From assembly GCF_055900595.2 (NCBI RefSeq), contig NZ_CM148325.1: DNA of 64,000 nt; one strand, written 5' to 3'. Under the pieces are notes generated by a model, which was given only the letters and a program-made list of their open reading frames with translations, had not been told where the DNA came from and made no database searches. Positions 14,489 to 14,737 of the stretch are shown piece by piece. Numbering within the stretch: the first letter of the stretch is position 1; each line of letters begins with the position of its first letter. Position numbers and translations under genes: made by a program.

Positions 14489-14519
14489 GTTTCCCCCGTT
14501 CAGTTTTGCAGGTGAGTTT

Positions 14520-14552
14520 TGAACAAATGTATTTCTGCTTTCAATTTGTTCA
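14520..14552. promoter_or_regulatory. Inverted repeat TGAACAAAT-N15-ATTTGTTCA in the lsrA-lsrR divergent region; candidate LsrR operator
   Basis: Seen directly ~30 bp upstream of the lsrA start; the lsr intergenic region is known to carry LsrR and CRP sites, but the assignment is inference. Confidence 0.3.
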
Positions 14553-14653
14553 TAAACCTTAGGTGGACATTGCACATATTTCCGACGAATAGATCACAAT
14601 TTATGCTATTTTGATTTTCACGGTTGCGTTTGTTCATGCTCGTAGAGTCAAAC

Positions 14654-14669
14654 TGTGGTTGCTATCACA
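14654..14669. promoter_or_regulatory. CRP-like site TGTGG-N6-TCACA in the lsr divergent promoter region
   Basis: Matches the TGTGA-N6-TCACA consensus with one mismatch; lsr is known to be CRP-dependent. Confidence 0.4.
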
Positions 14670-14737
14670 GATATAAATGCGCAAGAACTGAACAATTGCA
14701 TTAAAGATTTAAATATGTTCAAAGTGAAGAATGAATT

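Follow-up and report, generated by a model that had tools for sequence, protein, structure and literature searches.

The 64,000-nucleotide stretch of DNA analyzed here (contig NZ_CM148325.1, RefSeq assembly GCF_055900595.2; hereafter the window) carries divergent lsrA and lsrR genes, and the spacer between them holds two conspicuous elements: a palindrome with 9-bp arms next to lsrA and a CRP-like TGTGG-N6-TCACA sequence nearer lsrR. The initial annotation, made from the letters of the sequence, left open which of these elements is the operator of LsrR. There is no single operator to be picked from the two, as the spacer has two operators, one clear CRP site and a second, probable one, and the lsr control region of the window is the already known, well-studied AI-2 switch of E. 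coli. Taken as a whole, it is highly probable that the 249-bp spacer represents this bidirectional control region, with two LsrR operators, two CRP sites and promoters that appear to be of class II. The finding itself re-identifies a textbook-level region that has already been mapped and is used in synthetic biology.

Direct reading of positions 14300-14900 revealed that 14489-14737 is the whole 249-bp spacer, extending from the lsrA ATG (reverse strand, 14486-14488) to the lsrR ATG (14738), and the gene calls on both sides bear out the earlier description of a divergent lsr control region. The product of lsrA (12953-14488, reverse strand), the first gene of lsrACDBFG-tam, is the AI-2 ABC transporter's ATP-binding subunit; it scored 954 bits against NCBIfam NF011967 (cut-off 586), with profile positions 1-510 aligned to residues 1-511. 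On the strength of this alignment and of the RefSeq gene calls for a genome that has the identical spacer, the true lsrA start is the ATG at 14488 and not the GTG at 14575 that opens the longest ORF. On the forward strand, lsrR (14738-15691), the first gene of lsrRK, encodes a SorC-family repressor (NF011947, 613 bits, cut-off 486) identical to K-12 LsrR at 311 of 317 residues, with D38E as the only change in the DNA-binding domain, and lsrK (15770-17362) encodes the AI-2 kinase, the source of the inducer phospho-AI-2 (NF008187, 1001 bits, cut-off 528). Among the lsr genes downstream of lsrA (8689-12959, reverse strand), LsrC, LsrD and LsrB also exceed their cut-offs, such that lsrACDB, lsrR and lsrK all lie above curated NCBIfam equivalog thresholds, while lsrF and lsrG are intact ORFs of the annotated lengths (291 and 96 aa) and tam is likewise an intact ORF of annotated length. 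The complete AI-2 uptake and processing set, as had been claimed, is indeed present.

The palindrome was found where it had been placed, with TGAACAAAT at 14520-14528, a 15-nt spacer and ATTTGTTCA at 14544-14552, on the lsrA side. A repeat search of the spacer extended its arms to 12 nt with 92% complementarity and uncovered a second, related element between the CRP-like site and lsrR. These elements, box A (14520-14552, no strand assigned; TGAACAAATGTATTTCTGCTTTCAATTTGTTCA) and box R (14689-14721, no strand assigned; TGAACAATTGCATTAAAGATTTAAATATGTTCA), are 76% identical over 33 nt and share the design TGAACA-N21-TGTTCA. An inverted repeat with 9-bp arms is not by itself rare, as the window has 79 of them (seed of at least 9 nt, arms within 30 nt). 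The pattern TGAACA-N(15-27)-TGTTCA, by comparison with an expectation of 0.10, had two matches in 64 kb, each of them with N21 and each inside the spacer, and two matches were reached in none of 100 shuffles. A position weight matrix (PWM) of the box gave 39.7 bits for box A and 32.3 bits for box R, with no site in the rest of the 64 kb exceeding 2.6 bits, and its symmetrized form revealed that the inner TT...AA is also conserved.

Hauk et al. (2016; PMC5137460), in a passage citing Xue et al. (2009), describe repression of the operon and of LsrR itself through two LsrR boxes in the lsr promoter region. Counting from the start codon of lsrA, the p-lsrR box was placed at -237 to -197, with AACAAT and AAGATTTAA as essential motifs and TAATGCA between them at -214 to -208 (PMC5137460). 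Both essential motifs map exactly onto 14689-14721, and in K-12 numbering box R spans -232 to -200, within the published interval, with TAATGCA exactly at -214 to -208. Because the span and the TAATGCA position coincide with the published ones, box R is the p-lsrR box. Of 14 selected promoter-up clones, 12 lost their gain once the native p-lsrR box was restored (PMC5137460). The palindrome, box A, is the p-lsrA box named in the legend of Fig. 2 of the same paper, in which numeric coordinates are given for the p-lsrR box only; the positions of the p-lsrA box, CRPI and CRPII reported here are mappings made in this analysis. Recent LsrR footprinting papers on cysN and phoP report motifs unrelated to these and contain nothing on the lsr spacer. 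Thus the palindrome singled out initially is an LsrR operator, while the second LsrR box at 14689-14721 had been overlooked, although a simple self-similarity search of the spacer would have brought it out. As a calibration, sequence alone had yielded one LsrR operator of two and, likewise, one CRP site of two.

A scan for LsrR using one genome per species recovered 22 Enterobacterales loci, with lsrA divergent from lsrR in all of them, and 14 labelled taxa among these were aligned (alignment A1). Blocks invariant in the 14 taxa include the lsrA ribosome-binding region, TGAACAAA...ATTGTTCA in box A, GAACAATTG...ATGTTCAA in box R, GATCAC (14592-14597) in the second CRP site described below and G.TCA (14632-14636), and the sequence separating invariant blocks varies freely. 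When metagenomes were scanned with a box R from outside E. coli, 15 matches were returned, 13 of them directly upstream of LsrR orthologues in the same layout. The position and the hexamers of both boxes are retained in about 25 lsr regions (the 14 labelled Enterobacterales plus 11 other distinct loci from metagenomes). In all genera other than Buttiauxella, perfect hexamers with N21 occur at fixed offsets, the exception being the Serratia H1w type, whose lsrR-proximal box has a single hexamer mismatch.

This pattern bears on whether LsrR works through just one of the 33-bp boxes, with the other a non-functional duplicate. The mutagenesis in PMC5137460 covers box R only, and in Buttiauxella (loci L017-L023) the box nearer lsrR is degenerate (CGAACATATG...GAGTTCA), its hexamers having 2 mismatches and its score being 0-9 bits. 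Against a lone operator stand the perfect hexamers and fixed positions of both boxes in the non-Buttiauxella taxa examined, the higher score of box A, and the statement of two LsrR-bound boxes in the passage of Hauk et al. that cites Xue et al. (2009). Consequently, a single functional box is very unlikely, and two operators remain the preferred reading.

An RNA stem-loop in the lsrA leader, acting as an attenuator or as a stability or translational element, would also produce a palindrome at this position. The leader would hold the whole palindrome if transcription started near 14549, and its predicted fold does pair the 9-nt arms. However, the fold of the lsrA leader amounts to just -9.9 kcal/mol (z = -1.5) and is matched by 14 of 200 shuffles, while box R folds no better than shuffled sequence (z = +0.67). 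The outer hexamers are invariant in sequence across genera and the inner arm positions drift without compensatory changes, an Rfam scan of 14200-15000 at E <= 1 returned no match, and published genetics assign the boxes to LsrR (PMC5137460). The hairpin reading of the palindromes was rejected on the fold z-scores, the empty Rfam scan and the lack of compensatory change, and we regard it as extremely improbable, leaving the boxes as DNA operators.

The design of the operators is also found in DeoR of Bacillus subtilis, a homologous regulator. The second-best NCBIfam match of LsrR is the Bacillus DeoR model NF053881, at 156 bits, which is under the model cut-off, as would be anticipated for a paralogue. 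DeoR occupies its full operator, TGAACA-N24-TGTTCA, as a tetramer, and apo-LsrR also crystallizes as a tetramer (PMC11229326). The outer TGAACA...TGTTCA is the same in the DeoR operator and the LsrR boxes, and half-operators are identical at up to 14 of 16 positions, as for the right half of box R and the right DeoR half-operator, while the spacer of the LsrR boxes (N21) is 3 bp shorter than that of DeoR (N24). With outer inverted TGAACA/TGTTCA hexamers and weaker inner subsites, the LsrR boxes are composed of two half-operators of the SorC/DeoR type, and by analogy with DeoR, one LsrR tetramer (a dimer of dimers) may occupy each 33-bp box. The two systems differ in that DeoR acts at a single operator upstream of one promoter, whereas the lsr spacer has two full boxes, a putative central relic (discussed below) and two divergent CRP-dependent promoters, and the effector is deoxyribose-5-phosphate for DeoR but phospho-AI-2 for LsrR.

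The CRP-like site likewise proved to be located as first described, nearer lsrR, with TGTGG at 14654-14658, a 6-nt spacer TTGCTA and TCACA at 14665-14669. The full site (14651-14672, no strand assigned; AACTGTGGTTGCTATCACAGAT; core 14654-14669) matches the published CRPII by order, as the succession of box R, TGTGG-N6-TCACA, a second CRP-like half-site and box A in the window is that of the Fig. 2 legend of PMC5137460. The second element, a weaker site that had escaped notice, is located at 14580-14601 on the reverse strand (AATTGTGATCTATTCGTCGGAA) and combines one near-consensus half-site with one poor half. It is probably CRPI, as suggested by the conservation of its half-site and by the published wording: the 22-mer ends 3 bp from TGTGCAAT (reverse strand, 14576-14569), a sequence described as 'very close to the CRPI box' (PMC5137460). 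According to an approximate CRP PWM built from 17 classical sites, CRPII reaches 11.4 bits and ranks fifth in the window, and CRPI, with its one good half-site, reaches just 4.9 bits and ranks 214th. The best match to this approximate matrix in the window is ATTAGTGATATACATCACAAAT at 42645-42666 (15.2 bits), and the fourth best is GAATGTGATCGTAATCACGTTT at 6901-6922 (13.0 bits), just upstream of a yneE-like ORF starting at 6905.

TGTGG-N6-TCACA could in principle be a chance match, with CRP acting on lsr indirectly or via another site only. TGTG-N8-CACA is expected 1.1 times in 64 kb and was seen once, as the core of CRPII, so that its occurrence alone is not significant. However, the probability that this single match would fall in the 249-bp spacer is about 0.004 (1.1 x 249/64000), and the approximate score of 11.4 bits is within the range of classical CRP sites. 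Furthermore, in the block TG..G...TCACAG the TCACAG is invariant across the 14 taxa and TG..G is conserved, while the flanks vary. The order of elements fits CRPII (PMC5137460), and published work has established that cAMP-CRP is needed to activate both divergent lsr transcription units and has predicted CRP sites in the lsr spacer across Enterobacteriaceae. A coincidental match is therefore extremely unlikely, and the sequence is best regarded as CRPII.

The layout, with box A beside lsrA, box R beside lsrR and, between them, CRPI apparently facing lsrA and CRPII facing lsrR, suggests how the region may operate. A putative -10 hexamer for lsrA, TAAGGT (14556-14561, reverse strand; predicted start about 14549), belongs to a TAnnGT that is invariant in alignment A1, and a putative -10 hexamer for lsrR, AACAAT (14691-14696, forward strand; predicted start about 14703), lies inside box R. 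The distance from the CRPI center (14590.5) to the first base of TAAGGT (reverse strand, 14561-14556) is 29.5 bp, as is that from the CRPII center (14661.5) to the first base of AACAAT. Because -10-like hexamers lie 29.5 bp from both CRP centers, class II geometry with CRP at -41.5 is predicted for each promoter, and both predicted start bases are A. The hexamers are weak, matching the consensus at four of six positions or fewer, and although AACAAT is invariant, it is part of an LsrR box, such that its conservation is not independent evidence for a -10 element. A scan of 14400-14850 found no consensus sigma-70 promoter or terminator, and the lsr spacer is absent from the list of constitutive RpoD promoters, the RpoD SELEX paper having only an internal lsrD/lsrB promoter; both observations fit with activator dependence. 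A literature search for lsr transcription starts gave nothing usable.

The proposed arrangement would consist of two back-to-back, CRP-dependent promoters. Numbered from the predicted starts, box A would span approximately -3 to +30 at lsrA and box R approximately -14 to +19 at lsrR, and an LsrR tetramer lying over each transcription start would occlude RNA polymerase until its release by phospho-AI-2. Such a scheme would accord with published work, according to which LsrR on both boxes represses lsrACDBFG as well as its own lsrRK, and phospho-AI-2 made by LsrK frees LsrR.

A third LsrR-like element, box C (14604-14636, no strand assigned; TGCTATTTTGATTTTCACGGTTGCGTTTGTTCA), is located between CRPI and CRPII. 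It ranks third among the PWM matches of the spacer and occurs at the same offset in every sequence examined; its start is separated by 84 bp from box A and by 85 bp from box R in the window, and the distances are 82-85 bp and 83-85 bp, respectively, across sequences examined. In E. coli, it has decayed: only the right half-site TTTGTTCA (14629-14636) is intact, the left hexamer having become TGCTAT in Escherichia, and the score of -8.7 bits in the window is reached by 77 of 2000 shuffles. The central box is reduced to a single half-site in Citrobacter as well as in Escherichia, and scores roughly 12-27 bits in many Enterobacterales (loci L056, L064, L066, L062, L015, L024 and L007), including values of 19.5 bits in Serratia sp. 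H1w, 17.2 in Edwardsiella hoshinae and 11.7 in Kluyvera and as much as 27.2 bits in several other loci (TGAATAAATGAATTATTTAATAATAAATGTTCA in L056). In 9 of 17 sequences, none of 2000 composition-matched shuffles reached the observed score, and box C columns TG (1-2), TG (9-10) and G.TCA (29-33) are invariant in the 14 taxa.

The central box, which is in helical phase (8 turns) with both outer boxes, may represent an auxiliary site or an evolutionary relic. We tentatively raise the possibility, which is open to considerable doubt, that the lsr control region ancestrally had three LsrR boxes instead of two and that E. coli lost all but one central half-site. Neither a third LsrR site nor looping by LsrR was found in the papers searched, and an earlier description in the primary lsr literature is possible. 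Were the central box functional, the region could be looped or coated by LsrR tetramers bound to boxes in phase with one another, with both CRP sites trapped, and E. coli, the source of the two-box picture, would be a reduced version. The two-operator model of AI-2 uptake control would then need revision, and the cooperativity assumed in models of the lsr switch might be explained. The phased central LsrR-like box across Enterobacterales is the sole part of the analysis that could add knowledge, and it should be read as a lead and not as a finding on the window. In the Buttiauxella loci L017-L023, the central box was not detectable, and the two outer boxes are 163 bp apart, approximately 15.5 helical turns, and are thus out of phase; in one of these loci (L022), box A and lsrR are about 120 bp farther apart. 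Buttiauxella has the same region, differently tuned.

A repressor-type site between two CRP sites is also the arrangement of CytR and CRP at E. coli deoP2. The element between the lsr CRP sites resembles an LsrR box and not the CytR octamers found at deoP2. Furthermore, the lsr CRP sites are 71 bp apart, unlike those of deoP2, which are separated by 52-53 bp. A CytR link was proposed for lsr by Hauk et al. (PMC5137460), who recovered up-mutations that changed TGTGCAAT to TGTACAAT and, in EP08rec, to TGTGTAA. Both mutations raise the match of the hexamer TGCAAT to the -10 consensus TATAAT from four to five of six positions (TACAAT and TGTAAT). An improved -10 element is a simpler alternative to the CytR site as an account of these mutations; the CytR site, an in silico proposal, is neither supported nor excluded.

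Genes, orientation and element order of the lsrA-lsrR region are the same in the window and in E. coli K-12 MG1655 (b1512/b1513), the region of Xue et al. (2009), Wang et al. (2005) and Hauk et al. (2016). None of the four core motifs differs, with AACAAT, AAGATTTAA and each TGAACA/TGTTCA pair conserved to the letter. The spacers are 98.4% identical, with five small differences, none of which touches a core hexamer: G for A at 14489, directly preceding the lsrA ATG; C in place of T at 14543, within box A (TTTCAA, K-12 TTTTAA); an extra A in 14554-14556, between the putative -10 and box A; T in place of C at 14663, within the spacer of CRPII; and C for A at 14681. Owing to the extra A, box A and box R are 169 bp apart in the window and 168 bp apart in K-12. 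A spacer match was found in 4178 of 5426 complete E. coli genomes, mostly at the 98.4% identity of the K-12 allele. The allele of the window is uncommon, as only 27 of the 5426 genomes match it at 99% identity or more, and it occurs with 100% identity in at least 10 complete chromosomes. An ungapped comparison of 18 kb of the window with locus L001 was made uninformative by indels.

Approximately 23% of complete E. coli genomes lack an lsr spacer match, and at least one (hit H40) retains only the first 49 bp of the spacer, beside an autotransporter gene. In a chromosome with a 100% identical spacer, the RefSeq order is tam-lsrGFBDCA and, divergently, lsrRK, followed by an ECSE_1600 family autotransporter and hipB. 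In the window, an intact 1822-aa ORF at 17844-23312 adjoins lsrK at the place of this autotransporter, and the counterpart of this locus in K-12 (yneO/ydeK) is a pseudogene.
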